Source of the DNA: an uncultured Verrucomicrobiae bacterium
Lineage (GTDB): Bacteria; Verrucomicrobiota; Verrucomicrobiia; Limisphaerales; Palsa-1400
Assembly (NCBI GenBank): GCA_963764165.1
Contig: CAVXRD010000002.1
Span: 352,001-416,000 of the forward strand
Direction: 5' to 3'
Length of the DNA stretch: 64,000 bases
Made by a program: the position numbers and the translations under genes. Under the pieces are notes generated by a model. It worked only from the letters and a program-made list of their open reading frames with translations. It searched no databases and was not told the origin of the DNA. This document shows, piece by piece, positions 4,086 to 58,128 of the stretch (positions are counted from its first letter, which is position 1; each line of letters opens with the position of its first letter).

Positions 4086-7000
4086 CTACCTGTTTTCAGG
4101 TTTGACAAATTTGAACAGCGGGACGGGATCCTTTTGCACCTGGTAGCCTCCAAAAGCATATTCCCCAACCCACAGGTTTGGCCCGCCTAGAAGGTGGCGG
4201 ATTTTTTGGACGCCAATTTTCCAACGGTCGCCGAGGTCGGGATGCCGAAGCTGGCGGAAGTCCGTGCCCCAAATCCACAGGGAGCCGTCCGATTTTTGAC
4301 CAATGACGGAACCGAAGCTGCCCCAGACGTCCGCCCAATCCGAATCCGTTCCAATTCGCTGGCGTGGCCCCAGCGAGGCGCTCGTCATCGGCCAACTGGA
4401 AATTCTCCTCCACAGCGTTCCGTCCGGATGAACTTCAAATAACGCGGGCTGCCAGTTTGCAGTCATGACCTGGCCCATCACGGGCTTGAAACTGGCTGAA
4501 AGCAACTGGCCGACGGCGGCAATCGGTGCGTCTGGCCCAGGAAGTCTCGCGGGCGGCCAAAAGCTCCACCACTCACCGGCGCCGTTGAGCAAGAAGCTGG
4601 CACCGCCGCTCATTCCGACCCAGTTTGATTCCAGACAAGCCTGCGTGGGGACGAAATTCGTGGATTGCGACCAAACTCCCGCGCTAAAATAGTTAAACAG
4701 GCCCCATGTCCACAAGGTTCCGTCGTCGCGAATGGCAAGAATTCCGTAGCTGGCCGCGCCAAGAACCTTCCAATCGTGCCGGTCGCCGATTTGCGTGATG
4801 TCATGTGTCACGGGGACAAAATTGGTTTGGTAGGTGGGGCGAGGAGGCTTCCCACCCTTCCAAAAAAACGAAGATCGATTTGTCACGATGGAACCGATTT
4901 TCGGAGCATCGACACCTAATCCAAGCTGGCCGCGGTCATTCTTGCCCCACCCCCAGAGCGTTCCATCCCTTTTTCGGGCAATTCCAAAATCGTTGCCAAT
5001 CCTCGCTTCGCTCCAATCCCGATTCGTTCCCAGTTGGACCGGCTCGGATTGGAAATTTGTCCAATGCCATAAAGTCCCATCGGTGCGGACACCAAGCCCA
5101 TCCTGGACTCCCATCGAGACCGAAGCCCAATCGTGGTTCGTGCCCACTTGCACGGGTTCAGAGGGAGTGGCACGCTCCCCATAATTAGAACGCGTCCAGC
5201 GCCACAACGTTCCATCCGGCAGGATGAACGAAATATCACGCTGGCCCCAGAACAGGCGCACGGGGCCGTTGCTTTGGCCCAGTGGCACGACGAGTGGCGG
5301 CGGAGGAACGACACGCAAGGCGCGGTTCAACAAAAACACTCCCAGCCCCAGCACGATCAAGGCTATTGCCGCCCGCCTGACAACGCGGCGGAATGGCATC
5401 CTCGACTTTGGTTTTTCCGCCGCTTTGGCCAGCGCAATCGCCGCCGCCTCTCCTTCGGTTGCGGAAAGCGCGAGCGGGCGGAAAGCAGTTTGCATCCGCC
5501 GCCGCGCCTTCCGCCAGCAAATCGCGTCAATCGCAATTCCAATCGCCAGCCACCAGGCTATGTCATATCCCAGCGGCGGCTCCCATTCGTCGCGGAAAAA
5601 GAACAGCACCACCAGGCGCGTTCCATAGGCGACGGCGCCAAAAATAATCCACGGCAGAGATAAAATCAGGGCCGTCGATTTTCCGGTGGCCCGCGAATGG
5701 GTCTTTTCTTTGAGCGACGACGCCATCGCCACCCATCCAATGGTCAGCATGTCCACCACCAGCATTAGAATTCCAGCGAACATCAGCCAGCGAAAAGTCA
5801 TAACCTCGTCGCGGTGCGGATTGCGGACGAGGGTAAACATCAAAATGACCTCTACGACGACCGTTACAACAACGGGTCTGAGAAATTGCCGCCGCAGCGC
5901 GTCCCATTGTCCTCGCAAGATTTCGCCTGTCGTCAATGGCGTCGAAAGGAGCAGTTCGAATGCGCCAGAACGCTTGTCCTCGGCCAATTGATGCCCTGCT
6001 TCCGAGATCATCCAAAATTTCAGCAATCCATTCAGGAGGAACGCGTAGAATAGGTTCGAGGCCTCATCGATATGGCCAATGAGGTGGACCGTGAGAAGCC
6101 ACAAACCCCCGAGGCCCAGCATCGCCAGCCACACGTAGCGTCCTTTTGTATGGGGCCGCGCGGTCAGCCAAAGATAGGCGTCGATGTCGAGCATCCGCTT
6201 GCGGAAGGCGCGCGCGGCGGCGGCTCTGCCCTCGCGCCACCAGCGGCGGCGGTGCTGGCTTGCCATCCGCTTCACAGTTTGGGGTGTCATCGGTTTGTCC
6301 TGCCACGAAGTCGGCGCAATCTGGCTCGCCTTTCGGATCAAGACCAGCGACCAGCAAAAAATAAGCATGAGCGAGCGCCAGAAGTGTTCCGGAGCCCCTC
6401 TGTATTGAGTGGCAAAACTGTGGACATAAGTGTAGACAGGGCACGGGTAGAGGAAGAAATCGCCAGTCGCGCTCGCGAGCGCGGAAAAAAACCAAGCCGC
6501 AGGACTTGAGAACGGGTGAAACGGATTGTGCCCGAGCGCGGAAATGATTGCCCACAGCAGCGGCGGCGCGGCCGCAAACAACAACATCAGCCCAAAATTC
6601 GCCCCCATCGACCGTTCGTGCTCTTTGCAAAGGGCTGAGGCGTAGATTCCGATTGAAGTGGAGAAAAGGAAGGTGGTGAGGAGCACGGCCACCATCCGCC
6701 AGAATTCGCCGCCGGTCATTCCGCCGGCCAGCAGCGGCACGGCCATCAGCGGGAACACGGCAAGAAGCCCATAAAGCCCGTTGAGCGAGGTGGCGGCCAT
6801 CTTGCCGAGGACGACGTCGTAGCCCGTCAAATCTGTCAAGAATAACAATCCAAACGTCCCATCGCGCTTCTCCTTGCTGAGGCAATCGGCGGTTGAGACC
6901 CGCCCGGCCACCAGGCAATAGAGCATGCAAATGGCTGAAAGAGTGTAAAATAAATTCCTCCCGATGGCCACCGTTGGATCAAAGGCGCTGATGCAAGCCA

Positions 7001-7112
7001 AGACGCCAAAGGCGACCGTGGCCGCGCCCGCAATTTGAAGGCGCATCATGAACGTTCCGCGCCGCCTTGAGGCCACGCGCAATTCCCGCTCAACGATGGG
7101 AAGAAAGGTCAT
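4086..7112 (-). CDS. ABC-2-type permease-like membrane protein fused to a C-terminal RCC1-repeat domain
   Basis: MTFLPIVERELRVASRR, two EKRxGxxxLLxxTxL motifs, many TM segments. C-terminal DGTLWxWG, GQLGLG and QIG.D.DW RCC1-like repeats. Confidence 0.8.
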   Translation of the reverse strand: MTFLPIVERELRVASRRRGTFMMRLQIAGAATVAFGVLACISAFDPTVAIGRNLFYTLSAICMLYCLVAGRVSTADCLSKEKRDGTFGLLFLTDLTGYDVVLGKMAATSLNGLYGLLAVFPLMAVPLLAGGMTGGEFWRMVAVLLTTFLFSTSIGIYASALCKEHERSMGANFGLMLLFAAAPPLLWAIISALGHNPFHPFSSPAAWFFSALASATGDFFLYPCPVYTYVHSFATQYRGAPEHFWRSLMLIFCWSLVLIRKASQIAPTSWQDKPMTPQTVKRMASQHRRRWWREGRAAAARAFRKRMLDIDAYLWLTARPHTKGRYVWLAMLGLGGLWLLTVHLIGHIDEASNLFYAFLLNGLLKFWMISEAGHQLAEDKRSGAFELLLSTPLTTGEILRGQWDALRRQFLRPVVVTVVVEVILMFTLVRNPHRDEVMTFRWLMFAGILMLVVDMLTIGWVAMASSLKEKTHSRATGKSTALILSLPWIIFGAVAYGTRLVVLFFFRDEWEPPLGYDIAWWLAIGIAIDAICWRKARRRMQTAFRPLALSATEGEAAAIALAKAAEKPKSRMPFRRVVRRAAIALIVLGLGVFLLNRALRVVPPPPLVVPLGQSNGPVRLFWGQRDISFILPDGTLWRWTRSNYGERATPSEPVQVGTNHDWASVSMGVQDGLGVRTDGTLWHWTNFQSEPVQLGTNRDWSEARIGNDFGIARKRDGTLWGWGKNDRGQLGLGVDAPKIGSIVTNRSSFFWKGGKPPRPTYQTNFVPVTHDITQIGDRHDWKVLGAASYGILAIRDDGTLWTWGLFNYFSAGVWSQSTNFVPTQACLESNWVGMSGGASFLLNGAGEWWSFWPPARLPGPDAPIAAVGQLLSASFKPVMGQVMTANWQPALFEVHPDGTLWRRISSWPMTSASLGPRQRIGTDSDWADVWGSFGSVIGQKSDGSLWIWGTDFRQLRHPDLGDRWKIGVQKIRHLLGGPNLWVGEYAFGGYQVQKDPVPLFKFVKPENR

Positions 7113-23643: not shown

Positions 23644-24846
23644 TCACGGTAGCGTAAAAGTTAGCCGGAAAAATCGTGCGGTCGTGTCATTTGTGACGAT
23701 CACTTGTTGCTCCCAATTGGATACAGTCGACGCCATCGAAACATTTGTCCAGATGTTGGCCGATAAATCGACCGCTCGTTGCAATGCCCAGCCTTTCGAG
23801 GGGGCAGTCCATGATAATACAACATTTGCTCCAACAGGTTGAAACTTCAAACTCGGAGGCCATAAAGCGATGAAAAGGCCGCCTGTGCCAAGCGCCCCGC
23901 AAATCCGGGTTCCATCTTGAGAGATAGCGATCGCCGGTCCACCGTTCGTTAAAGCGAGATCCTGACCCCATGTCAATCCATAGTTGGTTGAGGTATAAAC
24001 TCCATAAGGAGTCCCTTCCGATACTGACGCGGGGCATGAAACCAACCGAGCACCGTCCGCAGCACTTGCATCGGTCCACTCCCAAGTTGCTATGCTAGAC
24101 CGGGTCCAGTTGGACCCGGAATTTGTCGATACGAGAATCCCGTAGTTGTCTTCAACTGCGCTCAGCTTCATCCCGTCAGCCGATATGGTTGCCGAATTGT
24201 ACTGGCTGTCGCTGTAGGGGTACTTCTGGAACCATGATATTCCGCCGTTAGTAGACAAAAGTAAAGTGCCACCGGAACCGAAGGAGATTAGTTGCTGTCC
24301 CATCCAATCGCTGCCAAAAGGCACGTTTCGGGACAACGGCTGCCAAGTTAATCCACGGTTTGTCGAGAGGTTTAAATAATCGCCATACCACGCAAACAAA
24401 TGCGTTCCATCCCCCGAAAACATCACTACCGCCGGTTTGAACAAGGAACTTGCACGATTCGTCACCCAAGTAACGCCCGAATTCGTGGAGAGGAGAACGC
24501 CATTGATGGCGGGGTGTGCCAGGGCAATTAGCGAGCCATCCGGCGAGACGGCCACATTCATTCCGGCACTGATTGGAACACTGAATGAATTCCACGACCT
24601 GCCAATATTCGTTGAGACGCAAACCACGCCCGTTGTTGCTCCGATAGTCATGCCGCACCCCGCAATGGTTGCGCCGTCCGCCGACATGGCAACGTCGGTT
24701 ATTTGCAAATTCGGCGTGTTGGACGATAAAATCATAGTTTGGGCTGACACGGAAGCGCACGCTGCGGCTCCTATTATGGCCACCCACTGGAGGATCTGGC
24801 CGATTCCTTGGCCCTTCTCAATCTTCGATGTTTCCAAGCGGGGCAT
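23644..24846 (-). CDS. secreted BNR/Asp-box (STNxGxxW) beta-propeller protein with C-terminal ...FFRL module
   Basis: Signal peptide ending ASVSA-Q, six STNxGxxW repeats, tail VVLSW...LQRAVDL...WTNV...RFFRL. Promoter TTGTCA-16-TATAAT just upstream. Confidence 0.8.
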   Translation of the reverse strand: MPRLETSKIEKGQGIGQILQWVAIIGAAACASVSAQTMILSSNTPNLQITDVAMSADGATIAGCGMTIGATTGVVCVSTNIGRSWNSFSVPISAGMNVAVSPDGSLIALAHPAINGVLLSTNSGVTWVTNRASSLFKPAVVMFSGDGTHLFAWYGDYLNLSTNRGLTWQPLSRNVPFGSDWMGQQLISFGSGGTLLLSTNGGISWFQKYPYSDSQYNSATISADGMKLSAVEDNYGILVSTNSGSNWTRSSIATWEWTDASAADGARLVSCPASVSEGTPYGVYTSTNYGLTWGQDLALTNGGPAIAISQDGTRICGALGTGGLFIALWPPSLKFQPVGANVVLSWTAPSKGWALQRAVDLSANIWTNVSMASTVSNWEQQVIVTNDTTARFFRLTFTLP

Positions 24847-24909
24847 GATTGGCGGATTTATTATACGTGACGTTCCTTAATTGACAACCATTCGTTATTC
24901 CAAGGTTTG

Positions 24910-25938
24910 TCACGGTCCGGTGACAAGGGCTGGGTTCCAACCGAGGTGCCAATAATAATTCCAGAGGTTGGGCAATTTTACCAGTTCACCGTGCCCGTCA
25001 GCGAAGTTCATGTTGATTGCGCCAGGCAGGGGCTTGCCATGTTTCCAGGGAACGCTCCCTGTTGCCGTCCGCCCGCCGTGCCGCTGAATCGTGCAGCAAG
25101 CCATTCCATCCCGCGCAACCCCCATCGGGTCTGGTTGGCCCACGTAAAGGTCGTTGGCGGCGGTGTCAGTTTCCAGCGGTACACAAACGATATAATTTTG
25201 GTCAAAAAAAATTGGGGTCTGGGAAGGCTTCTGAACCGCTGTTATTTTGTTAAAAAAATACTCAGGCCCAATTCCGTAACCAAAAGCCGGGGGGCCTTGG
25301 GTCACAAATTCAGTGAACCAGCCATTTTGTCCGTAACTCCCGATTTGCGAGCCAATAGTAGTTCCCCCATAAGTTACCCACGACAAACTCGCGGTTCCGT
25401 TGGTTTCGACAAGCGCTAACGAGCGAGGGTTTGTCGAAGGACAGATTCGCACTGCGTCCCCAATCCCATAACTAATAAGAGCCCAATTCCAAGATTCGCC
25501 TACATTGGGTACATAATCAGAAATTAAAGGGTTGTTGTAGGGGAATCCGCCCGTCGAATCGTTCAGATACATCAGTCCAGCCGCAGTGATTTGTTTGACA
25601 TTGTTCAAACAAGCCGTCTCTTGAGCTTGTATTTTCGATTGAGCCAAAGCTGGTAATAACAGCGCCGCCAAGATGGCGATGATTGCGATGACGACCAGAA
25701 GCTCAATGAGGGTGAAAGCTCGGGCAAATGCGCTTTTGGCCCGTGCAGCCCTATTGGATGGCAAAATATCGTTCATCTGCAACGGAACAACTTGGCTGAG
25801 CCTGGCGAATACACAAGTTCTGAATGGCCGAGACGATTTCATTATTTCATTGGGCGCAAATCCGATTTTGTGAACCCCCCTGTTTGCGCGGCTCGGCTGG
25901 AGCCGCGGCGTCAAAAACAGATTTGCACGCAATTTCAT
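24910..25938 (-). CDS. prepilin-type N-terminal cleavage/methylation protein with H-X9-DG-like domain
   Basis: [42 protein letters not shown]. Start uncertain. Confidence 0.9.
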
Positions 25939-25945
25939 GCTTTGG

Positions 25946-28900
25946 CTAAGGACATTGCTGGAATGTGTTGGTCCATACGTAAGCGTTGGTTGTGATTAGT
26001 ATAAAGCCTTGTCCAACAGCAAGTTCAGGATCGCCATTAGACCACGACCCCGAGGTAAATGTGTGGGAGGTATAGGACTGATTGGTTACATTTAGCAGTT
26101 TGATGACGTCCCCATTGTGGGGAATATAGCCGGTGATGTTGGTGATATTCCCAGCGATTGGAATGGATGCGCTTAAGTAATTCGTTGAATAAAGATTTGT
26201 TCCTTTGGGCCGGATCTGGAAGACTTGCTGCTCCCGTACCAAGCCGTTGAACCAGATGGTGAACGGACTGCCAGTGGGGTTGACCATGAGCGCCCCAGCG
26301 CCCGGTAACATTGTCACATTCCCGCCACCGTTCCACTGAACAGCTCCAAGACCCACGTTCGTATCGCCAATAAACCCAGCCCCATTCCACTCGTAAATCT
26401 CCACCCCGGACTGGGCGGAATTCCATGCGTTCAAGACGCCAAACAAAGCGTAAAGGGTGTTCATTGGAAGGGGCAAGCCGCCTCCGTCATACAGCACCCC
26501 GTCGTCCACTTGATACAACGGGTCGGCGATCAAGTTCGTTGCGGAGGCGTACCCCAAGGGAAGGTAGGGCGGGTTCGTGCTGCTGACGTTGGTGTCGGAA
26601 GCAATTGTCAAGCTAACATAGCCAAGGACCTTGGAACAGCAGCCACCATTTCCCACCAGATAGAATTTCGACGCGTTGGTGGCGTTTGTGTCGACAAAAG
26701 AGGCGTTGCCGGTCACAGAATCCATGGCGAGGTTCGTTCCTATCTGGATCCAGTTTGTCACAGCCAAATTGGTGGAGGCGAACACGTTCCAGTTGCTGCT
26801 GCCGGGCGTGCCAGTCATGCTGAAGGAGAAATTGCCCGATTCGTCGTTGTCGCCGCTGAAGACGAAAGGGGCGCCGCAATAGGTGGCGATGTTCGTCGTC
26901 GGCGTCGACTGCCCTGTGTGCGCGGGGTCATGCTGGAACATAGGCCAGCTCGCGTTGGTGGCCAGCGGTGACGATCCCCAAAAACAATACAGATTGCCAT
27001 CCTCGCCCGCGACCACAACCGAACAGTCCGGCAAAATGACTGGGCTTGAATAAATTGGCATGCCGACGTTTGTCGACCAGATGACCCCGCCGTTCGTGTT
27101 GATGGCGTAGAACGTGCCGTCCGTTGCTCCAAAATAGATGGTGCCGTCCGCAGCCAGCGCGGGTGTGTCACAAATTGTGGCGCTGTTCGTAAATACCCAA
27201 TTTGTGCTCCCATCCGCATTTAGGGAAATAAGCCCACCCCCTGCGGATCCAGTGTAGATCACGCCACCTTGGCTGACCGCAGGTTGAGGGGGAATGCCGC
27301 TGTTGCTAATCTTTAGGGGGTATATCCTTTAGGGGGTATATCCATTTGACTGATCCGTCGGGGTTAACGCAATGCAAATATGAGGCGCAAAGGTATGTGG
27401 CATAAAAATAATTCCAAGTAACCAGGATGGACCCATCTGGCGCGATGGCAGGTCCCGGAGATGGATCCCCTGCTGGGACAGGAAGAAACCACTTCAGTTG
27501 GCCTGAAGAAGTGAGCGCATCGAGCCTATACCCTTCCGACAAAAAATAGACTGTGCCGTCCGCGCCGATGATCGGGCTGCCATCGGCATCTCCCCCATCG
27601 CCATGATAGAGGTCTTGTGGTTGGAAAAACCAATTGGTGGTTCCGTCGGGGTTAAAAGCAGTCAGTCCGGAGACGATGGATGAGCTGCCGTTGGGTTCGT
27701 CAGAAGTAGCGTATATCAGGCCGTTCGTGCCCAAAGCGGGGGTGGAATAAAGGGATACATTCTCACCAGCAAGGCTGTTCCAGTTGGTTCCGAGCATGGG
27801 GCTGTAGGAGTAAAGATTCCCATCATAGGAGCCTGCGTAGACTTTGCCTTGCGGGCCAATTGCGGCAGAACCCTCAAATTCGCCTTCAGCCGACGACGGA
27901 ACGTCCGTTGCGCTGTTGGTCCAAAGCAGATCCCCGAAAATCGGGTCAACCGCGAAAGTATTGGTGCCGCCGGTCGTGATGTAAAGTGGCCCCAAGGGGC
28001 TAACGGCAGGCGACGAGTCGAAGCCATCGCCAACGTGGTCGATGTAATAGGTTGGATTGAGCAAGTTGGTCACCCATTTCAATGTGCCGTTCGTCGGTCC
28101 CGGGCCTTTTTGCGCGATGAAATAAAGATCCGTGGCATCCAGGATTCCGATGGGATAGGCCGGGGTGTTGGTGCCGACAGCGCCCTGGAGCGATTGGTTT
28201 GTAACCCACGGGCCAAGGAGATTCGTGGCTGCCAACAGCAGATAGTTCGTCCCGTTGGTTGTGTTGATAAGGTTCACCGCCACCGCATGGTTGGAATTTG
28301 TCCAGGCGATAGCCAAATAAAGATCGTTGGTGTTATAGGTTGGACTCGGCGGTAAAGCCCCTCCGCCGCCATTAGTCCCGCCATCAACCGGAGCGGGCGG
28401 TGCGTCATCATCGAAATGGAATCCCCCGCCACCCGTCACACCACCCAGCCAGGTGTAATACGAGTTCGTGTCCGCCGACCACGAGTAAGTCAGCCAATCC
28501 GGAAAAAAGTGTTCCACATTCGTGGTATCGAATTCAAGATAAGGAATCGTCCCCCGAAATTGTTCATAACCCAAATTGTCGGAACCAAGGAAAAATCCAT
28601 TGGTCACCGTGTTGGTGGCTGGAATTATGGTTACCGGCCCGCCAGAGGCGGCCCATTGCCCGTCCAAGGCCAGCCATGTTGCCGTCCCATAATAATAGAC
28701 TCCGATTTCATGAAGGGAGTTGCTCGCCCACGAAATAGGCGCGCTGACGTAATTGGTCGTGACGGAATTGCTGACGCCACCGAAGCAAATGTTTGTTCCT
28801 CCCGCATCGACATAAAGACTCCAAAGGCCATTTGGCGAACCGGAGGAAAAATCGCCAGCGGCGAGCAAATAACCTCGTTGTCCCGGCCCGAAACCGAGCT

Positions 28901-29285
28901 GATTTGTGTCCGCAGAGGCCCAGTCTGGCACAGCTTGGAGAAAAATGACGCCCGTCCCGAGGTCGACATCCACAAATCCATTTGTTTCAACAATTCTGTA
29001 TTGAACGCAGGCGGGAATCTCGTTGGTGGTATCGAGCCAGAGCGCTTCCGCGCCCCAGAAAGGAATGACATAGGCATTCGTCTCCGTTATGGGTGCGTAG
29101 CCGGAATCCGAACTGAAAGTGGACTGAAAAGAGTAGCTGTCAAGAATACTAACGGGAATGGGTGGAGGCTCGATTTGCGCAAACAAAGCCTTGGTTGTGA
29201 GCAAAAGAAAAAAGGCCGAATGCAGTCCGACCCGATAAAGCGATTGCTTGTGGTTGTTCATAAGAAGCATTCCCGATTTTAACAA
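25946..29285 (-). pseudogene. large secreted LamG-like + PQQ-type beta-propeller protein, split by a 16-bp tandem duplication
   Basis: ORFs 27306-29285 and 25946-27262 share SSPA/TPAL..DGTIY PQQ-like repeats. Removing one CTTTAGGGGGTATATC copy (27311-27342) fuses them in frame (WIYPLKISNSGIPPQPAVSQGGVIYTG). Confidence 0.85.
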
Positions 29286-30441: not shown

Positions 30442-31536
30442 ATGGCCAGAATTGACGCCCTTTTTAACTTAATGTACGAGCAGAAGGCTTCCGATCTGCA
30501 TCTTTCCTCGGGCAGTCCGCCAATTCTGCGCATTAATGGCGAGCTTACCCGCGTCGATTCCCCTCCGCTGGAGGACGACCAACTGAAGGTCATGCTCTAC
30601 GAAATCGCGCCGGAATATAAGATCAAGACATTTGAAGAAACGGGCGACGTCGACTTCGGCTACGAGATTCCGAACGTGTCGCGTTTCCGCGCCAACTTTT
30701 TTACGCAAAAATACGGCATTTCGGCCGTTTTCCGCCAAATTCCCAGCAAGGTGTTGTCATTTGAGGATTTCGAAAAGTTTGACGCGCCGCTGCCGCCGGT
30801 GCTCAAGAAATTTGCCATGCTGCACAAGGGCCTTGTCGTGGTCACCGGGCCGACCGGCTCCGGCAAGTCCACCACCCTGGCGGCCATCGTCGATTACGCC
30901 AATAAAAACCGGCGCGACCACATCATCACGGTGGAGGACCCCATCGAATTCGTGCATGAAAGCAAAAGCTGCCTCGTCAATCATCGCGAAGTCGGCCTGC
31001 ACACGAAATCGTTTACGGCGGCCTTGCGCGGCGCTCTGCGCGAAGATCCGGACATCATTCTCGTCGGCGAATTGCGCGATTTGGAAACCATCGAATTGGC
31101 GATCACGGCGGCCAGCACGGGCCATCTTGTCTTCGGCACCCTGCACACGCAAAGCGCAGCCAAGACGGTGGATCGTATTATTGACGTCTTCCCGGGCGAC
31201 CAGCAGAACAAAATTCGCGCCACGCTGTCGGAATCGCTGAAGGGGGTCGTGGCGCAAAACCTGTTCAAGCGGATTGATCGCAAGGGGCGCGTGGCCGCGC
31301 TGGAAATCCTGCTTTTCAACACCGCCGTGGCCAATCTCGTTCGCGAAGGCAAGACCCACCAGATCCCGGGCATGATCCAGATCGGCAAGAAACACGGCAA
31401 CACGCCGCTGGACGACTCGATCATGGACCATCTCAAGATGAGGCGGATTTCCCCGGAGGAAGCCTACGACAAATGCATCGAGAAAAAGAAGTTCCGCCCC
31501 TTTCTCGCGCATCCTCCGGAAGAAGATGAAATGTAG
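30442..31536 (+). CDS. pilT: type IV pilus retraction ATPase PilT
   Basis: ASDLHL, GPTGSGKSTT, TVEDPIE, ALREDPD, GHLVFGTLHT, ANLVREGK. Confidence 0.95.
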   Translation: MARIDALFNLMYEQKASDLHLSSGSPPILRINGELTRVDSPPLEDDQLKVMLYEIAPEYKIKTFEETGDVDFGYEIPNVSRFRANFFTQKYGISAVFRQIPSKVLSFEDFEKFDAPLPPVLKKFAMLHKGLVVVTGPTGSGKSTTLAAIVDYANKNRRDHIITVEDPIEFVHESKSCLVNHREVGLHTKSFTAALRGALREDPDIILVGELRDLETIELAITAASTGHLVFGTLHTQSAAKTVDRIIDVFPGDQQNKIRATLSESLKGVVAQNLFKRIDRKGRVAALEILLFNTAVANLVREGKTHQIPGMIQIGKKHGNTPLDDSIMDHLKMRRISPEEAYDKCIEKKKFRPFLAHPPEEDEM

Positions 31537-39409: not shown

Positions 39410-42274
39410 TTATTTCTCATCCCTGTCCGACCTTCGTTGCGCTCGGCGCTTCGCGTCCAGCAGGCGGCTGGTGACATTGGCTTGCTCTTTGGTAGGGGGC
39501 TTTGAACCGGGGACCGAGGGCGCAGGTACGTTTTCGCCAGATTGCGGGGCGGGCTTGCCGGTGTCTTGAACTTCGATTTTCTTTTCAGGTTCGAACAGGG
39601 TCGGGCTTGGCTCGATGGCTGTGCGCTCGAGGCGGACTTTGCCGCGGCGGGTCAGCAAGGCGGACAAGGATTCGTCGGCTTCCTTCGGGCGGGCGACGCC
39701 CTTCCACGGCATCAAAATGCGGCGCAAGCTCCTTGTCGCCTTCAGCCATTCTTCGCGGTCGATTTGGATGCGGCGGACGGCGACGTCGAATGGGAAAAGC
39801 AGAATGGCAAATTTCAACAGCCAATCGCGCAGGTCAAATGGTTGAAAGGTCTCGATGCGATCGTGCGAAAATGGATTATCCGTGTCCGGGTCGAGGATTT
39901 TTCCAGCGCCGGTATCCGCGAGGCGGTGAAGCAGCGATGTGTTCGGGCCGGAATCGTCGAATTCCGGCGAATAGTTGACACTCAAGCCCAGCGCCTGGGA
40001 TTGGCCAGTGCCGCGGTCAACCAGGTTCATCAGGTAGGCGCCAACTTCCTTGGTCGGAAAGGTCGCGTCGTAATGGCCGGGGCCGGTTTGTTCCAATTGC
40101 AAAACCTGCTTATCCCCTTTCGGGCTGACGGCGAGCAATTGCAGATTCAGAAAATTCCGGTAATGGCCGTCCGCATCAATCGCCTCGACGCTCACGTGCC
40201 CCTCGCCTTTGTCCACCGCGACTTCCGTGTTGAAGTCCGCCGCATCGACGCGCCGCAAACTCCATTGCGCCGTCTGCTGCCAGAATTGCTGGAACTTCGC
40301 CCACGTCAGCCAGCTCGGCGCCCACTTCGCCCGCGCGTCCGAGGTGAACGCGACTGACCGGCCCAGGCCGTAATTCCAATGCGCGAGCAGCGGGTCGCCC
40401 TTGTCCGTGACGAGCGGCACTTCAGCGCGGCTTTTTGGCGTGGTGCAGACGTAGCCGAGCAACTGCGGAAATTCCGTCGGGCCAATGCCTTTGATGATTT
40501 CGCTGGAGGCCTTCTCCTGGGGCTTGAACGGCGCTTCAAAAATGGCCGACTTCAAAATCACCGATGCTTCCTTGACGAAAATCTGCGGCAAGTCCGACGC
40601 GGAATCGACCGCCCAAAATCTCCCGTGCCCTTCGGCGGCGAGGTACGACATCGTGTCCGGCGAAACGTGCCCGCCGATCATCACGGTGCTGATGGTAATT
40701 TTATGTGTGACAATGTCCTGGATAAGCGTCTTGGACGGCGCGCCGGGATCGCCATCGCTGAACACGATGAGGTGCTTCAAGCTGGCGGTGGATTTGGCAA
40801 GCGCCTCGTAAGCCGATTGCATTGGCGCCTGGAAATCCGGCATGTCGCCCGGGTTCATGCCGTTGATCTGGCGGCCCATGTATGTTTTGTCACCGACTTT
40901 CCCCAGCGGGAATTGCCAGTGAATATTGCCGTCCCACAATACAATGCCCATCTCATCCTGCGGGCCGAGCGCCTGCAGCGCCGCGTAGGCAATGTCGCGC
41001 GCCCAGCCGTTGCCTCCGGGAAATTCCGTGGCATGGCACACGATGGCCAGCGCGCCGTTCGGGAGAACTTTCTTGCTGTTCAATTCCATTTCCACCGGCA
41101 GCGCCGTTTCCAGTGGCGTCCCGCGATATCCTCCGGCCGCAAACGTTTGGTCGCCGCCGATGCAGACGAGGCCGCAGCCGAAATCGCGCACGGCGCTTTC
41201 CAGCAAGCGCATTGAATCCAGCCCAAGATCGCCCGCCGACATGTTGCAGAGAAAAATCGAATCGTAGCTCTGCAATTCGGCCAGGGTCTGCGGGAATTTG
41301 TCTGTCAAATGCACATCAAGCTTGCCGGCTTCAAGGGCCGACGCCAATTCGGTGTCGTGCTTCGGGTCGCTCGAAACAATCAGGACGCGCGGGTTGCCTC
41401 GGACGGTAGCGAAGGAAGTGGCGTGGTTGTTTTGCGGAATCGTGTCTCCGGGCGCGTCGAGTTGAACGTCGTATTTGTAAAAGCCGGGCTCGGTCAGCGT
41501 CTGCGGAAATGTGTAAAGGTTTTTGCCCCCGTTCAGTTGCACTTTTTGTTCGCCGAGCGAGCCATCGTTCAAATAAAGCCGGATCGTGGCGGTTTGCGCC
41601 GTGTCGGCTTGCGCGAAGATTTTAACATCGAAAGTCTGGCCCTTCTTGACAGTCGTCGGCAGCGTCAATTTGCGGATCGAAACGTCGTTGCCGCGGCTCG
41701 TGCCGAGCGGGACAACATCCAGGGTGACGCCCAGCGGAAGCGACGCGGTCAAGGCGGACATGGCATCGCCCACGTTTTCATTTCCATCGGACATCAGCAC
41801 GAGGCGCTTCTGGCCGGTTTCGGGAAAGGCGGCGGTGCCGAGGCGAATCGCGCTCGCAATGTCGGTGCGCTCCACGCCGACGACGGCCTGAATCTGGCGC
41901 AAATCGACCTGCGCGTTGGGCCGCGCCTCAATGGCGGCGTCCGCGCCAAAGACCAGCACGCCCGCGATGTCGTTGGCTTTCTTGTCTTTGACAGAGCGGT
42001 TGACGAACGCTCGCTCGGCATCCTGCTGGACAGACGGCACACTTCGAGACCTGTCAAGCATGTAAAAAACAGTCATTCCCTGCTGGGGTTTGCGCCATTC
42101 CAATCCCGCCGCGGCAAAACACAAGGCCAGCAGGACCAGCACGCGCAGCAAAAAGGCCGTCCAACGCCGCCATGTGCCAATTTGAACGTCCGACTTCCAG
42201 AAAAGCCACGCCGTCCAAGCCAGCGCGGGAGGCAGCGCCAGCAACCAGAGTGGGTTGGAAAATTGGAAGCTCAT
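39410..42274 (-). CDS. membrane vWA + glutamine-amidotransferase-like domain protein
   Basis: BatA-like N-terminal TMs, MIDAS DRSRS, SDGNEN, GGYRGTPLETALPV, second vWA FSDG, YGLGRSVAFTSD. ATG 42274 overlaps the upstream stop. Confidence 0.85.
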   Translation of the reverse strand: MSFQFSNPLWLLALPPALAWTAWLFWKSDVQIGTWRRWTAFLLRVLVLLALCFAAAGLEWRKPQQGMTVFYMLDRSRSVPSVQQDAERAFVNRSVKDKKANDIAGVLVFGADAAIEARPNAQVDLRQIQAVVGVERTDIASAIRLGTAAFPETGQKRLVLMSDGNENVGDAMSALTASLPLGVTLDVVPLGTSRGNDVSIRKLTLPTTVKKGQTFDVKIFAQADTAQTATIRLYLNDGSLGEQKVQLNGGKNLYTFPQTLTEPGFYKYDVQLDAPGDTIPQNNHATSFATVRGNPRVLIVSSDPKHDTELASALEAGKLDVHLTDKFPQTLAELQSYDSIFLCNMSAGDLGLDSMRLLESAVRDFGCGLVCIGGDQTFAAGGYRGTPLETALPVEMELNSKKVLPNGALAIVCHATEFPGGNGWARDIAYAALQALGPQDEMGIVLWDGNIHWQFPLGKVGDKTYMGRQINGMNPGDMPDFQAPMQSAYEALAKSTASLKHLIVFSDGDPGAPSKTLIQDIVTHKITISTVMIGGHVSPDTMSYLAAEGHGRFWAVDSASDLPQIFVKEASVILKSAIFEAPFKPQEKASSEIIKGIGPTEFPQLLGYVCTTPKSRAEVPLVTDKGDPLLAHWNYGLGRSVAFTSDARAKWAPSWLTWAKFQQFWQQTAQWSLRRVDAADFNTEVAVDKGEGHVSVEAIDADGHYRNFLNLQLLAVSPKGDKQVLQLEQTGPGHYDATFPTKEVGAYLMNLVDRGTGQSQALGLSVNYSPEFDDSGPNTSLLHRLADTGAGKILDPDTDNPFSHDRIETFQPFDLRDWLLKFAILLFPFDVAVRRIQIDREEWLKATRSLRRILMPWKGVARPKEADESLSALLTRRGKVRLERTAIEPSPTLFEPEKKIEVQDTGKPAPQSGENVPAPSVPGSKPPTKEQANVTSRLLDAKRRAQRRSDRDEK

Positions 42275-44598
42275 TTGCGGATGAATTTTTGCACCCGGTT
42301 GTTCAACGCATCGCAAACGTATAAATTGTCATGAGAATCGAAGGCAATGCTCCACGGATTGCTGAACTGGCCCGGGCCGCCGCCCGGCGAGCCGAGGATT
42401 TCCACCGTCCTGTCATTCGAGTCAATAATCTGAATCCGGCTGTTGCCAAACTCGCAAACAAACTGGTAGCCCTTCGAATCCAGCCGAATGTCGTAGGGAT
42501 AGCTGAACTCGCCGCTGCCAGAGCCCGCCTTGCCGTATTGGCGTTCAAACTTCCCCTCCCCGTCAAAAACCTGAATGCGATGGTTGCAGGAATCCGCCAC
42601 GTAAATGTTGTCGTTGGTGTCAATGCCAAGGCCCTCCGCGCGATTGAATTCGCCCGGGCGGTCGCCCAATTTCCCCCATGTTCCCAGGCACTTTTCGCCA
42701 TGGGAGGTGAAATGCTGGACGCGTTCGGATTCGGTGTATTCACAGACATAAAGATCGCCCTTCTTATTGACACACGCCGCGCGGGGCATTCCCAACTGGC
42801 CAAAGTTGGTGCCCTTGACGCCAAATTGCGCGTCGAGCTTGCCTTCAGGGGAAAAGAAATTGACGCGCGAATAGTGCGGTTCCACCAGAACGATGTCGCC
42901 AGTTTTGTCAGTACACATGCCCTTGGGCCTGCCCTTTTCGATTTGCGGCATCTGCCATTCCATCAGGAATTTTCCGTCGGGCGAAAATTTCTGGACGCGG
43001 CCCGTCATGTCGATGACGAAGAGATTGTCCTTGGTGTCGAGGGCGACTGAGCGGGGTTTGTTGAATTCACCAATTCCCGCGCCCCGCCCGCCGATGATTT
43101 CCACGCGGCTGAAGAACTTGCTGTCAACAGGAGCGCTTTTCCGATCATCCACCGAGCAGGAAGCCACCAGCGGAACAGCGACCGCCAGCGCCACCGCAAA
43201 CCCCACGCCGCGAAAAGACCGCGTCTTTGCGAACATCAACCAAAATCCCCAAAACGCGAGCGGAACGAGCGCCAGCAGCAGCAGCAGCAGGCAGAGCGCG
43301 TTGACTTGCGAGTTGTGACCGTAGTGAAGCAAATTGAAAATTCTTAGCGACAGACTCTCGCCGCCCGGCGGCACGATCAGCACGAGCGTTTCCACGTCCC
43401 ACAGGCATAGCAGATAGGTGACATACCACGCCGCGCCGACTTGGGCTGACGCCTGCGGCCAGTGAACATGCCGCAGCGTTTGCCAGAAATTCGCGCCTTC
43501 CAATCGCGCCATCGCCAGCAATCCGGCATCACCGGTGCGCAGCGCGCGAGCCACAATGTTCCAGCCGAGCGCGGCATAGCGGACGACATAAGCGAGAATG
43601 ACGATCCCCGCGCTTTGGTAAAACCCCTCAGTGCCGGGCCGATTAAAAATCCAAATCAGCGCGATTCCAAGCAACACGCCCGGGACAAAAAATGGCAGCC
43701 ATAACGCCGAATCAAGCCGCCAGCGCCACGTCAACAACGCAATAAGGATAACGCCCGTTGCGGAAAGGATCGAATATTCCAGCGAATGCGCAATGGCCCA
43801 GTGTCCGGCTTCCGTTGCCGTTACAAATTGCGACCATGTGTTCCGGCTTTGACACAATTCCCAAAGAGGAACCGCCAGAGAAAATGCGGCCAAGACGACC
43901 GCAGCCGCCGCCCCCGCCCAATGCCATCCGCCTCCGAGCTGCCGACGCAAGGCTGCCGCCTCGGCTGGTTTTGCCTGCCACGACCACGCGTTGTCGCCGC
44001 CGCGAAAACTCCACATGAGCACCAGCGGCGCAAGCACCAGCGGCCAGCACAATTCAATTGCAGATGCATAGTCAAACGTCGTGTTAAACCGCACCCACAC
44101 TTCCGCCGGAAAAACCTTCACCTGCAAAATGGCGGGCACGGCGAAATTGTTAAGCGCCATGACCAGCGTCAGAATGGAACTTTGCACGAGCGCGGTGCGG
44201 GCCAGCGGCAGCAGCAGCCACCGCAGCAAAAAACGCCCTTCCAATCTCGGATCAACTTCCAGTTGCACGGCTTGGACGCGCCGCCACGCGGCTGTCACGA
44301 ATAAAAATGAGATGGGCCAATTGAGGAGCATCAGAGTCCAGGCCGCCCCGCCCATTGAGTAAATATTGACCGGCAGCCATTCCCGCCAAATGCCTCGTTC
44401 GCCGAGCAATTCAATCCAGCAATTGACGACAAGAAACGGCGGGAGAACCAATGCCACCACAGCCGCAGCCAGAAACAGTCCGCGCGCGCGGCCCGCGCAA
44501 CTCGCGAACCACAGCGCCGCCAGCGCCCCGCCCAACACGGCGAGGAAGGCCGAAACTCCGCTCACCAAAAGACTGTTGCAGACCAGCGGCCAGTTCAA
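42271..44598 (-). CDS. FbpB/ThiP-like ABC permease fused to an NHL-repeat beta-propeller
   Basis: Two permease halves (LVLPPFL...NNFAVPAIL; VPGVLLGIALI...ARLEGA), then FNKPRSVA, VADSCNHRIQVF, FSYPYDI NHL repeats. TTG 44598 overlaps the upstream stop. Confidence 0.85.
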   Translation of the reverse strand: MNWPLVCNSLLVSGVSAFLAVLGGALAALWFASCAGRARGLFLAAAVVALVLPPFLVVNCWIELLGERGIWREWLPVNIYSMGGAAWTLMLLNWPISFLFVTAAWRRVQAVQLEVDPRLEGRFLLRWLLLPLARTALVQSSILTLVMALNNFAVPAILQVKVFPAEVWVRFNTTFDYASAIELCWPLVLAPLVLMWSFRGGDNAWSWQAKPAEAAALRRQLGGGWHWAGAAAAVVLAAFSLAVPLWELCQSRNTWSQFVTATEAGHWAIAHSLEYSILSATGVILIALLTWRWRLDSALWLPFFVPGVLLGIALIWIFNRPGTEGFYQSAGIVILAYVVRYAALGWNIVARALRTGDAGLLAMARLEGANFWQTLRHVHWPQASAQVGAAWYVTYLLCLWDVETLVLIVPPGGESLSLRIFNLLHYGHNSQVNALCLLLLLLALVPLAFWGFWLMFAKTRSFRGVGFAVALAVAVPLVASCSVDDRKSAPVDSKFFSRVEIIGGRGAGIGEFNKPRSVALDTKDNLFVIDMTGRVQKFSPDGKFLMEWQMPQIEKGRPKGMCTDKTGDIVLVEPHYSRVNFFSPEGKLDAQFGVKGTNFGQLGMPRAACVNKKGDLYVCEYTESERVQHFTSHGEKCLGTWGKLGDRPGEFNRAEGLGIDTNDNIYVADSCNHRIQVFDGEGKFERQYGKAGSGSGEFSYPYDIRLDSKGYQFVCEFGNSRIQIIDSNDRTVEILGSPGGGPGQFSNPWSIAFDSHDNLYVCDALNNRVQKFIRK

Positions 44599-54609: not shown

Positions 54610-57600
54610 TTATGGATAAATCAGGCGGAAGAACACTGCTTCGTCTGCAAGGCTGATTGGGATGATTTCCAAATTGGTCGCAGAGGAACCGGGAATCACC
54701 ACCCAATTTGTGCCCAGTGCATTCGTCTGGGCCTCGAGTCGAAAACCGGCGTGATCCGCAGGCCAGCTCAAGGTCACGCTGTTGGCGGAACGGAACACCG
54801 TCACATTGGTCGCGCCGGTGTTGGGAACCACAGTGACGGTGATCGTATTGGTTGAACTCAAGTGTGGATTGACCAGATCATAGGGATTGCTGTTCGACAC
54901 AACCGTCGTGATGGTGTTGGTGGTGAGTGATTGGTTTTGGGCGGGGGTCCAGGTTATGACGCCATTGCTGTTGATGGAAGCGCCAGCCGGCGGGGCCAGC
55001 AGCAGATAGCCAGCAGTGACGGAATGAATATTCGGCTCGGTCGCGCCATTGGTGATGGTGGATGGATGCTGCACGATAATCGATTTGACAGAGGATGACG
55101 GCAAGACAGGCGCAATATTCACCTCCACGACGATGACGGAAAAGGCATTGGTGGCGCTTAATGCCGGTGTGCCGTTATCCATCACGCCCACCATCACCAA
55201 ATTCGTGGATGGACTATTGGTCTGTTGAGGCGTCCAAGTAAGAATCCCGGTGGTGGGATTGACGACCATTCCGTTCGGGCCTGCGACGAGGCTATAGGTA
55301 AGAGATTGCGGCGGCGATTCCCGATCCGTCGCGGTGTTGGACTCCGTTAAGGTGGCCAGTTCATCGACTGTGTGCCAGTTGGTGCTGGAAGTGACAAAGA
55401 TTGGCCGGGTATTCAACACGGTGAGCACAAAATAACCGGGATCATAATTGGTGCTCCAGGCGTCGGCAAAAGGCAGCGCGGCGCTGGCAAAAGCCCCTGT
55501 GAAAGAGCCATAATAAAGATTGGTGAACGAGTCGCCGATGGCGGGCTGGAATCCATCGTTCAAATTGGCGCTGATGGCGCCTGTCAAAGATACGGCGCCG
55601 GCAAGCGTGACGGTGCCGTAATTGGTCAAACCATTGACGCCAAAATTTATGGTCCCATTCGTCAGGTCAACCGCGCCTTGCAAGCTGATGTCGCCGGATT
55701 CGGAGTCCAGGATGCCCGAATTGTTGAACACGACATTGGCATCAAGAGTAGTCAAGCCACTGTTGCCTGACTTGAGGAAGGTCCCGACGTTGTCAAACAG
55801 AGTTGTGCCGCCGTCGTAGCCGCCCGTGAAACTGTCGTCACCTTCCGCGTTCCAAAAGCCGTGATTGTAAATTTGCGCGTTGCTGGGGCCGTAACTGTAG
55901 ATGCCGGCATTGGTCCAGTGGACGGCGCCATTGTTGGTTAGAATCAGGCCGGTGAAACCAACGTTGCCCCCGCCTGCTATGCTCAGAACGCCATTAGTGG
56001 CAATCGTCAAAACACCTGACAGCGCGCCGCCCACCCAATTCAGCGTCCCCACAATTGTCCCGCCAAACGTCGCGCCACTCGTCAAGTAGCTGCCGAGACC
56101 AAAAAAGGTATTGGTATTGGCAAAGGAATAGCTGGAGAATTGAATGGTTCCGCTGCCGGAAGTTGCCAGGTCGCCGCCACTGCTTGTGCCCGTGCCGCCA
56201 ATGAGCAGCGTTCCGCTCTGAACATTGAAGAGGCCGGCATTGTTAAACTCGACATTATCATCGAGAGTGGTGGCGCCAGTGTTGCCGGACTTGAGAAACG
56301 TTCCGAAGTTATCGAAGAGAGTAAAGCCGCCGTCGTAGCCGCCGGTGAAGCTGTCGTCGCCCTGCGCATTCCAAACGCCGTAATTGTAAATCTGCGCGTT
56401 GCCCGGGGCATAACTGTAAATGCTGGCATTGGTCCAGTCGACCGTGCCCAAGTTAGTCAAGACGAGGCCGGCAAAGCCAACATTGCCGCCGCCCACAATA
56501 TTCAAAACGCTGTTGCTGGCCACTGTCATATTGCCAGTTATATAGCCGCCGCTCCAGGCCAGCGTTCCGATCAGCACATTTGTTCCGCTGAGCGTGCCGC
56601 TGACAAGTTGGAGATGTGGGGCTGTCAGCACGCCATCGATCGTCGTGTCTCCTGTCATTTCCACCGCGCCGCTGCCGCTGAGATCGGCGCTGTTGGCGAT
56701 GGTCATGCCGTCCAAAGCGAGCACTGCGCCGCTAACAGTGCTAAAGGATCCACTTCCGCTATTCACGCCTTCGCCCAGAGCCAGTGTGCCGCTTTCGACT
56801 GTGACGAGGCCGGTGTTGTTGAACACCACATTGGCATCAAGAGCAGTCAAGCCGCTGTGGCCCGACTTGAGGAAGGATCCAAAATTATCAAAGAGTGTTG
56901 TGCCGCCGTCGTAGCCCCCCGTGAAAGTGTTGTCGCTTTCGGCATTCCAAACTCCGTGGTTGTAAATCTGCGCGTTGCTGGGGCCATAACTGTAAATGCC
57001 GGCATTGGTCCAGTTGACGGCACCATTGTTAGTGAGAACAAGCCCGGCAAAACCAACATTGCCCCCGCCTTCGATGTTTAGGATGCCATCAGCGGCAACC
57101 GTCAAAACACCTGTCAGCGCCCCACCAACCGAATTCAACGTTCCCACTATCGTCCCGCCAAAGGTCGCGCCGCTCGTCAAGGCACTGCCGATGCCGGTAA
57201 AAATTGTTTTATTAACAAAGGTATAGTTTGGGGTGGTAAAATTGACGAACGCGCCGGCCCCCGTGGCAAAGGCGCCGCCGTTGTTGGCGCCGGCGGCGAT
57301 ATCCAAAGTCCCGCTTTGGATATCAACTGTCCCGATGTTGTCGAAGACAACATTCGCATCAAGCGTGGTGACACCCAAGGCGCCCGATTTACTGAAAGTC
57401 CCGATGTTCTCGAAGAGGGTTGTCCCGCCGTCGTAGCCGCCCGTAAAGCTGTCATCCCCCTGCTCATTCCACGAGCCGATGTTGTAAATCTGCGCGTTGC
57501 TCGGGCCGTAGGAGTAAATTCCAACATTGGTCCAATTGACCGTGCCTAGGTTGGTTAAAAGGAGGCCGGCAAAGCCAACAATGCCTCCACCCGAAATGCT

Positions 57601-58128
57601 CAAGATGCTTTGTTCGCCCACAGTCAAACTGCCGGACATGTCTCCCCCGCTCCACACCATGGGGCCTGAGCCAGTGGAGTCCCCCGCCAATTCATTGGTT
57701 CCGGCAAGGCCGCCGCCATCCAGATTGAATATGCCGTGGGAGTTGACCAGAATCAAACCGTTGACGGTTAGAGTCTGGCCGCTGGTGTAAAAGCTTTGCA
57801 TGTATGGTCCGTATTGCGCACCCACCACCAGGCCCGCCACCGTTGCATCCACGTCCAGGTAAACATTATACTCCCCAATGTTGGTGATGACCGCTGTGTC
57901 ATGCTGGCCTGGAACCACGCCCGAACTCCAATTGCTGCCCCCGCTCCAGTTGCCGCCAATGGGATTGATCCAGATGATTGAGTTTGCGCGGCTCTGAATA
58001 CCGACGAATGCCAGCAGAACTGCGATGGAGAGCCTGAGATCGATGTATTTAATAAGTTGGTTAGAGTAGGTGTCATCGAGGATTCGGAGCCATACGGTGT
58101 TCTTCCTAAGGTTATCCCTCGCAGCCAT
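54610..58128 (-). CDS. large secreted repeat surface protein (adhesin-like) with He_PIG/cadherin-like domains and C-terminal ...FFRL module
   Basis: Signal-like LSIAVLLAFVGIQSRA, four long repeats (WTNAGIYSYGPSNAQIYN...FTGGYDGGTTLFDN), LTYSL...TGILTWTP, tail VTLSWP...VFFRLIYP. Confidence 0.85.
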   Translation of the reverse strand: MAARDNLRKNTVWLRILDDTYSNQLIKYIDLRLSIAVLLAFVGIQSRANSIIWINPIGGNWSGGSNWSSGVVPGQHDTAVITNIGEYNVYLDVDATVAGLVVGAQYGPYMQSFYTSGQTLTVNGLILVNSHGIFNLDGGGLAGTNELAGDSTGSGPMVWSGGDMSGSLTVGEQSILSISGGGIVGFAGLLLTNLGTVNWTNVGIYSYGPSNAQIYNIGSWNEQGDDSFTGGYDGGTTLFENIGTFSKSGALGVTTLDANVVFDNIGTVDIQSGTLDIAAGANNGGAFATGAGAFVNFTTPNYTFVNKTIFTGIGSALTSGATFGGTIVGTLNSVGGALTGVLTVAADGILNIEGGGNVGFAGLVLTNNGAVNWTNAGIYSYGPSNAQIYNHGVWNAESDNTFTGGYDGGTTLFDNFGSFLKSGHSGLTALDANVVFNNTGLVTVESGTLALGEGVNSGSGSFSTVSGAVLALDGMTIANSADLSGSGAVEMTGDTTIDGVLTAPHLQLVSGTLSGTNVLIGTLAWSGGYITGNMTVASNSVLNIVGGGNVGFAGLVLTNLGTVDWTNASIYSYAPGNAQIYNYGVWNAQGDDSFTGGYDGGFTLFDNFGTFLKSGNTGATTLDDNVEFNNAGLFNVQSGTLLIGGTGTSSGGDLATSGSGTIQFSSYSFANTNTFFGLGSYLTSGATFGGTIVGTLNWVGGALSGVLTIATNGVLSIAGGGNVGFTGLILTNNGAVHWTNAGIYSYGPSNAQIYNHGFWNAEGDDSFTGGYDGGTTLFDNVGTFLKSGNSGLTTLDANVVFNNSGILDSESGDISLQGAVDLTNGTINFGVNGLTNYGTVTLAGAVSLTGAISANLNDGFQPAIGDSFTNLYYGSFTGAFASAALPFADAWSTNYDPGYFVLTVLNTRPIFVTSSTNWHTVDELATLTESNTATDRESPPQSLTYSLVAGPNGMVVNPTTGILTWTPQQTNSPSTNLVMVGVMDNGTPALSATNAFSVIVVEVNIAPVLPSSSVKSIIVQHPSTITNGATEPNIHSVTAGYLLLAPPAGASINSNGVITWTPAQNQSLTTNTITTVVSNSNPYDLVNPHLSSTNTITVTVVPNTGATNVTVFRSANSVTLSWPADHAGFRLEAQTNALGTNWVVIPGSSATNLEIIPISLADEAVFFRLIYP

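Follow-up and report, generated by a model that had tools for sequence, protein, structure and literature searches.

Why should one dipeptide, Thr-Asn (TN), recur in the exported proteins of an uncultured bacterium whatever their fold? The question is raised by the window, a 64,000-nucleotide stretch (contig CAVXRD010000002.1, positions 352,001 to 416,000) of a Limisphaerales genome in the phylum Verrucomicrobiota. A first-pass annotation of its positions 23644–29285 had proposed TN as an undescribed sequon for modification after export. The TN excess is genuine and strong, and selection has worked on it in both directions, with sites gained in exported domains and removed from one class of adhesins. 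We tentatively read TN, and more weakly SN, as the acceptor motif of a putative general periplasmic O-glycosylation by a membrane GT-C enzyme.

A directional TN excess outside the cytoplasm

The source genome, G000 (7.0 Mb, 97% complete), yielded 5246 genes with a self-trained hexamer model, of which 4257 were used for counts. Topology classes come from hydropathy heuristics with no trained predictor, and expected dipeptide counts from each protein's own composition unless otherwise given. In the 1261 signal-peptide-like proteins TN is the top of all 400 dipeptides (5188 observed, 2496 expected). Its observed-to-expected ratio is 2.08, against 0.79 for NT, 0.96 for SN, 0.88 for TD and 0.67 for TQ; TN exceeds NT in 668 of these proteins and falls below it in 189. 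The sequon idea survives both of the equalities named against it, as TN frequency matches neither the product of the Thr and Asn frequencies nor the frequency of NT. With a charge filter, the ratio is 2.06 in 1818 exported proteins and 0.98 in 2087 cytoplasmic ones. A first cytoplasmic class gave 1.29, being contaminated by exported proteins with missed signals, and restricting it to proteins with at least 12% E+K+R brought the ratio to 0.91–1.03.

The two residues must be adjacent (T-x-N, 0.95), and the order is T-N as first claimed: in exported proteins N-x-S/T stands at 1.06 and D/E-x-N-x-S/T at 1.00, neither enriched. TN holds as the core, and the true motif is wider: Thr preferred over Ser, Asn, then not Pro, then not Lys or Arg. 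The excess in exported proteins is limited to T-N-(not P)-(not K/R) (7218 observed, 3283 expected); TNP is near baseline (213 against 202, 1.06) and TN-x-K/R is at 0.68 (123 against 182; cytoplasmic baseline 0.78). At N+2 the favoured residues are A, V, I, L, F, P and T, with Asn also close to baseline. About 3,950 excess TN sites are present in G000, many per chain and at all chain positions, and the motif occurs in 1089 of 1699 exported proteins. The pattern was replicated in 79 loci from relatives, where TN reaches 514 against 256 in 206 exported proteins and 170 against 254 in cytoplasmic ones, with TNP at 19 against 14.4 and TN-x-K/R at 9 against 16.

The excess is still 1.92-fold against shuffles within 10-residue windows, and the five other reading frames give 0.71–1.28, with nothing of the TN type. 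It is present in every protein size class (1.77–2.25), among unique 10-mer contexts (7401 against 2780) and in charged globular exported proteins (981 against 537). Independence of fold was tested on homologues. Across 155 aligned exported pairs, G000 has 217 TN and its homologues from no-excess genomes 92, with similar counts of N and T; the figure of 92 is partly circular, since low TN was itself the criterion for choosing the comparison group. In 352 cytoplasmic pairs the counts are 180 (G000) and 174. The claim of fold-independence is upheld by these pairs, in which sequence flanking the G000 TN sites shows lower conservation (0.32 against 0.39).

Confinement to extracytoplasmic domains, also part of the original proposal, can be seen within single polypeptides, where only the outer side is enriched. 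TN is 49 against 19.8 outside and 6 against 6.4 inside in 16 Ser/Thr kinases, 36 against 17.1 and 9 against 9.0 in 17 histidine kinases, and 31 against 12.6 and 2 against 5.7 in 11 other bitopic proteins. As a separate observation, an 888-residue exported protein with no Pfam match (L176, G000:C2:1794434-1797100) has the reverse bias, with 26 NT and 7 TN (9.1 expected).

TN-rich proteins of the window

The window features that carry the motif, or lie among those that do, are as follows.

4086–7112, minus strand: ABC-2 permease carrying a fused RCC1-like domain at its C-terminus; 6 TN, every one in the RCC1 part, and 0 NT
23644–24846, minus strand: exported BNR/Asp-box repeat protein; 10 TN, 2.1 expected
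24910–25938, minus strand: prepilin-type (N-methyl) protein; 2 TN, 1.5 expected, no enrichment
25946–27262, minus strand: C-terminal part (438 residues) of the same exported protein as 27306–29285; 21 TN
27306–29285, minus strand: exported PQQ-type beta-propeller protein, N-terminal part (659 residues); each of its 25 TN fits T-N-(not P)-(not K/R)
27312–27343, no strand: perfect 16-bp tandem duplication, frame-shifting, which splits a gene of about 1,090 codons into two open reading frames (ORFs)
54610–58128, minus strand: exported 1172-residue protein, no Pfam or NCBIfam match; 28 TN, 12.7 expected

The two main ORFs are one gene, and homologue P0003 (1090 residues) spans both. The frame is split because of the tandem duplication, which may be a real mutation or an assembly error. 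TN in the 659-residue ORF compares with 3.8 expected and 5 NT, and 20000 shuffles peak at 12; in the 438-residue ORF it compares with 4.3 expected and 3 NT, and 54610–58128 has 11 NT. Earlier hand counts of about 25 TN (over half of the Asn; we find 25 among 43) and about 21 are reproduced for the two ORFs. For 54610–58128 the reported enrichment was correct and the exact count is 28, not about 27.

The recurrence of TN in unrelated folds had been argued from several further proteins. All six RCC1 contexts (GTNH, WTNF, GTNR, VTNR, QTNF, STNF) are exactly as given. The TN sites of KdpA are there, seven of them, and three belong to TNTNWQ/GTNGGG, common to the KdpA chain of PDB entry 6hra, which removes them from the argument; KdpA also has 6 NT, and two loop TN sites fall within an insertion. 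Lnt, KdpC and the NHL protein are small single proteins with too few sites to count individually, and the vWA example was wrong, the 968-residue vWA protein at 39410–42316 having 0 TN. On the cytoplasmic side, MnmE, ProS and the PilT at 30442–31536 have no TN, and Der and RNase R have 1 and 2, as reported; a second PilT has 1, where none had been noted. In the Asp-box protein, six Asp-box-like repeats of the form S-T-N-x-G-x-x-W have Asn where other G000 Asp-boxes mostly have Asp, and each has a built-in TN site. A D-to-N swap as a genome-wide rule was rejected, as the called gene set, in which 23644–24846 is not included, has 0 TN against 3 TD.

Lineage distribution and removal from TpsA adhesins

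The TN status of genomes other than G000 was determined from 40–120 kb samples of each (34 genomes). Seven of 12 sampled order members lie at 1.47–2.08, one at 1.20 and four (G128, G156, G190, G127) at 0.71–1.08; G149 is borderline, with 23 TN against 15.6. Nine classmates outside the order range over 0.65–1.27, and classmates show no excess (64 against 72 expected). Outside the class, 13 genomes were sampled and six of them show TN enrichment (1.45–2.35, p <= 0.03). No clear alternative motif was found in genomes without a TN excess. In the low-GC order member G128 (L108-L109, L143-L146), which lacks the excess, N-x-S is 68 against 49 in exported proteins, a weak sign that a shifted motif is possible.

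The route of export matters. Twin-arginine proteins are neutral, with TN 23 against 25 in 35 strict cases and 54 against 60 in 65 broad ones. FliD has 8 against 9.8, two flagellin-like genes 3 against 5.2, and 15 barrel-like proteins are neutral as well (48 against 46). The two TpsA adhesins of G000, each adjoining a TpsB, have TN 0 against 34.7 and 1 against 12.6; the single TN is a TNP, and SN is absent.

We extended this comparison, the most powerful of the tests, to TpsA groups set by taxonomy. The order set of 22 holds the two G000 proteins and one each from 20 of 29 other PF05860-matching genomes, chosen by score and length before counting; nine genomes and second copies were omitted, and one gene was cut at 20 kb. 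The comparison sets are 12 proteins from 10 of 11 classmate genomes (G039 omitted for short frames) and eight from other classes. The order TpsA have TN 16 against 442 expected and SN 62 against 305, whereas the classmate TpsA have 124 against 163 and 88 against 161. NT is alike in the two sets (0.66 and 0.63), and per-protein TN ratios do not overlap, the highest order value being 0.43 and the lowest classmate value 0.49. The purge follows the motif: TN not followed by Pro is 11 against 431 (0.03) and TNP 4 against 9.9 (0.41), with N-x-T, N-x-S and T-x-N escaping the purge (N-x-S/T 1.26, D/E-x-N-x-S/T 1.14). Among TpsA of other classes two are purged (TN 0 against 4.8 and 0 against 9.2), and four from TN-untested families are not or only mildly purged. 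Since kin are not independent, the comparison counts as a handful of contrasts between lineages and not as 34 separate ones. A lineage-specific purge is unlike what a structural turn predicts. One of the two G000 loci (L171, G000:C2:2479059-2494793), with a 2400-residue TpsA and its TpsB, lies by eye between a kinase-like gene and type VI secretion-like genes.

Sites are thus gained in Sec-exported domains, neutral in chains that bypass the periplasm or reach it already folded, and removed from pore-threaded chains in some lineages, which points to a periplasmic enzyme adding something bulky. Selection for a site of modification after export, as first proposed, is well supported, and the modification itself we infer. 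Judged from these sequence statistics, the site is very probably modified covalently, and the adduct is probably a glycan.

Candidate enzymes and the nature of the adduct

Three adjoining genes at the end of the window are candidates for the machinery.

59273–60247, minus strand: WecA/MraY-like phosphoglycosyltransferase (Glycos_transf_4), candidate initiator of a lipid-linked glycan
60244–61407, minus strand: GT4 glycosyltransferase, directly behind the TMEM260-like gene
61416–64000, minus strand (whole gene G000:C2:413416-416343, its start outside the window): membrane protein of 975 residues, TMEM260-like (DUF2723), with a TPR domain and without the DSGE motif; candidate part of the machinery

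The TMEM260-like protein matches PF11028 above cut-off (32.5 bits; atlas 0.99), and profile alignment agrees. A fold search gave PIG-U, Pmt1, Pmt4, STT3 and ArnT as best matches (TM-score about 0.41–0.52, none at E <= 0.001), and the full-length protein gave TPR matches only. In the predicted model its own TN sites would lie partly in loops and partly in helices. The STT3 family (PF02516) has no match in G000, with four archaea as positive controls; PF08409 (TMTC) has none either, its controls being likewise negative. The genome does contain three PF11028, 14 PMT_2 and eight Wzy_C matches, and further GT-C-like proteins by architecture.

PF11028 occurs in 81 of 81 order genomes and two of 40 other classmates, and in all 12 sampled genomes with a clear or borderline TN excess; its presence looks necessary and is insufficient across genomes with and without the excess. 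The window form itself is in 78 of 81 order genomes, and GT4 stands directly behind it in 22 of the 23 where both were found, the WecA-like gene coming next in the window. The three genomes without the window form are exactly the three with STT3 above cut-off; two of them lack a TN excess and one is borderline. Their STT3-family genes are at G127:C39:6382-7368, G190:C22:14617-15099 and G149:C36:67762-68199, the last in a 1628-residue frame that is a possible fusion, and small samples of these genomes show no clear N-x-S/T excess.

A 1304-residue DUF2723 paralogue (G000:C4:588331-592245) has EDSGE and HPPGYP intact. In the first 250–380 codons of long DUF2723 genes, compared across genomes of known TN status, EDSGE is kept in 16 of 16 orthologue ends, with and without the excess; the long form usually adjoins housekeeping-type genes, not glycan genes. 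Other family members were also seen. A third paralogue of 493 residues (L001, G000:C1:270700-272064) has EQSGQ for EDSGE and is probably inactive. A second window-type TMEM260-like/TPR copy (L128, G000:C2:776801-779983) is flanked by very TN-rich secreted proteins near polysaccharide-type glycosyltransferase genes. An expanded PMT-like family with TPR and a TMTC-like architecture (L177, G000:C1:704733-710336, and elsewhere) has about eight paralogues, three in tandem.

In the O-glycosylation reading, Sec-exported chains would be met while still unfolded by a membrane GT-C enzyme, which would move a glycan from its lipid carrier to the Thr hydroxyl. The transferase could be the intact 1304-residue paralogue, the window TPR form linked to the GT4 and WecA-like genes, or both. 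Stability or coating would be the benefit for which periplasmic and surface domains acquire sites; adhesins that have to thread unfolded through TpsB would shed them, as a bulky adduct would block passage or beta-helix stacking. If the adduct is a glycan, Thr/Ser and not Asn is somewhat favoured as the acceptor because Ser is tolerated for Thr, STT3 is missing and TMEM260 offers an O-linked precedent, and the chance that a TMEM260-like protein is the transferase is about even. The window gene is a lead as the enzyme, not an assignment.

Several observations weigh against this reading. A loop-parity test on 328 membrane proteins gave no contrast between inside and outside (303 against 182 and 265 against 162); the kinase-anchored tests replaced it because hydropathy-derived parity was judged unreliable. 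Two RND periplasmic regions show no TN excess (3 against 3.3), and of the four TpsA that come from TN-excess families of other classes, two (L224 in G062, L226 in G110) escape the purge. The window form has no catalytic Asp: the DSGE of the long paralogue, which we take to be the position of Asp52 in the first outer loop of TMEM260, aligns to SLPV. It is kept in G128 and G156 and missing from borderline G149, and GT4 is retained in all four TN-neutral order genomes. In enriched genomes of other classes its homologues are weak or not found, and one neutral genome has a homologue. The long form was rejected as a sufficient cause, being intact in G128, G156, G190, G127, G116, G080 and G050, all without the excess, and the many PMT_2 and Wzy_C proteins leave numerous other candidates. 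The exclusion of Pro after Asn and the STT3 swap fit an N-link at least equally.

Comparison with known systems places the putative system beside several without joining it to any. The published pattern nearest to it is Bacteroidota O-glycosylation, whose motif is D-(S/T)-(A/I/L/V/M/T/S/G/C/F) (PMC8729774, PMC12871550); that system is biased to proteins of the periplasm and inner membrane, and gingipains lack its motif (PMC8729774). The likeness lies in a short motif at a hydroxyl beside Asx, restriction to non-cytoplasmic proteins with a bias to periplasm and inner membrane, avoidance by some secreted cargo, and a transferase yet to be found. Here, however, the hydroxyl has Asn after it, where the Bacteroidota motif has Asp in front, Thr is strongly preferred, Pro and Lys/Arg are excluded downstream, and the phylum is different, the T-N system being proposed from sequence statistics. 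D-[ST]-[AILVMT] is not enriched in G000 exported proteins (1951 against 2212, 0.88), and among 14 control genomes only Bacteroides thetaiotaomicron matches PF11028. With PglB/AglB/STT3 the motif shares a strict Asn, no Pro directly after it, Thr over Ser and an extracytoplasmic location; it differs from (D/E-x-)N-X-S/T in having the hydroxyl at -1, not +2.

TMEM260 is an O-mannosyltransferase that requires Asp52 in the first outer loop (PMC10214176). The window protein and its paralogues share the family match, a GT-C-like fold and a C-terminal TPR region. Unlike the window form, which lacks the motif Asp and adjoins GT4 and WecA-like genes, TMEM260 serves one domain type (IPT) and no linear motif (PMC10214176); the literature covered describes no tested activity for bacterial members. 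PglL, PglS and TfpO perform periplasmic en-bloc O-glycosylation from a lipid carrier (PMC12645811), and G000 has a protein with Wzy_C and Wzy_C_2; PglL, however, has no defined sequon and prefers Ser in disordered regions according to the same source, whereas here SN is not enriched and a sharp motif runs across folded domains. The system would work like a motif-directed general glycosylation, and on their defining motifs it appears to belong to neither STT3 nor the Bacteroidota type.

A 2025 review names Bacteroidota as the only known motif-directed bacterial O-glycosylation, with an undiscovered transferase (PMC12871550). The string 'Verrucomicrob' is absent from PMC12645811 and PMC12871550, and full-text searches (top-ranked matches, with subscription papers mostly outside) returned no publication that describes a T-N motif or deals with glycosylated proteins of this order. 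If true, the O-glycosylation reading would give a second such system, set the surface chemistry of an order that is widespread and for the most part uncultured, and supply a two-residue tag for glycoengineering. Bacterial TMEM260-like proteins would become testable transferases, which may bear on the Bacteroidota question, and the TpsA purge offers a general single-gene assay, without proteomics, of the motif that a genome modifies.

The same system with its glycan on the Asn amide is less likely. It would be N-glycosylation by a non-STT3 GT-C enzyme reading a hydroxyl at -1 instead of +2, and the amide is favoured because Asn is strict (TD and TQ are not enriched), Pro straight after it removes the excess as in N-X-S/T (PMC8342417), and the window gene and STT3 replace each other. 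The window protein has also lost the O-mannosyltransferase Asp and keeps other near-invariant acids, D58, E159 and E167. On the other hand, the candidate family has an O-linked precedent only (PMC10214176), TN-excess genomes among 50 tested have no STT3 apart from borderline G149, and the swap may be one or two events, two of the three genomes being one genus. In a fuller form, quite unlikely as stated, Limisphaerales and several other Verrucomicrobiota would have a proteome-wide STT3-free N-glycosylation in which the window TMEM260-like/TPR protein, its active site rebuilt and its supply coming from the neighbouring GT4 and WecA-like genes, glycosylates the Asn of (T/S)-N-(not P) and was displaced by STT3 in a few lineages.

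A covalent periplasmic modification other than a sugar, such as phosphoglycerol, phosphoethanolamine or an acyl group, is improbable. The statistics suit whatever enzyme acts site-specifically in the periplasm, and none of the glycan genes follows the motif exactly. But the order is rich in GT-C genes, and the nearly total loss of sites in adhesins that thread through a pore suggests that the adduct is bulky. The N-linked sugars of HMW1 and EtpA are monosaccharides. Elsewhere, TpsA-type adhesins are secreted with small N-linked sugars attached (HMW1, PMC4550697; EtpA, PMC11463764). More improbable still is a periplasmic chaperone, retention or sorting factor that binds T-N unmodified, retained or folded-route proteins gaining sites and TpsB substrates losing them. 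It accounts for compartment restriction and purge without chemistry; the two-residue core, the strict exclusions at single positions, the number of sites in each chain and the 30-fold purge look more typical of an enzyme's target than of a binding preference. An artefact of structure, composition, repeat families or the DNA itself (beta-turns, T/N-rich repeats, codon-pair bias) finds some room in the conserved KdpA motifs, in the fact that the proteins richest in TN are T/N-rich repeat proteins, and in the heuristic topology classes, but is exceedingly improbable, as the excess survives local shuffling, frame, repeat-context, size, globular and fold-matched controls, is absent from classmates, reverses its sign in TpsA of this order only and is already contradicted as an artefact by the lineage-specific purge.

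Two minor observations remain. Two short ORFs at window positions 58193–59229, in the interval from the 1172-residue protein to the WecA-like gene, resemble by eye pieces of an insertion-sequence transposase. Records titled Bifidobacterium or Bifidobacteriaceae (L016, L022, L028, L034, L266, L272, L301) contain relatives of Limisphaerales genes at 42–59% identity, and their titles appear to be mislabelled.

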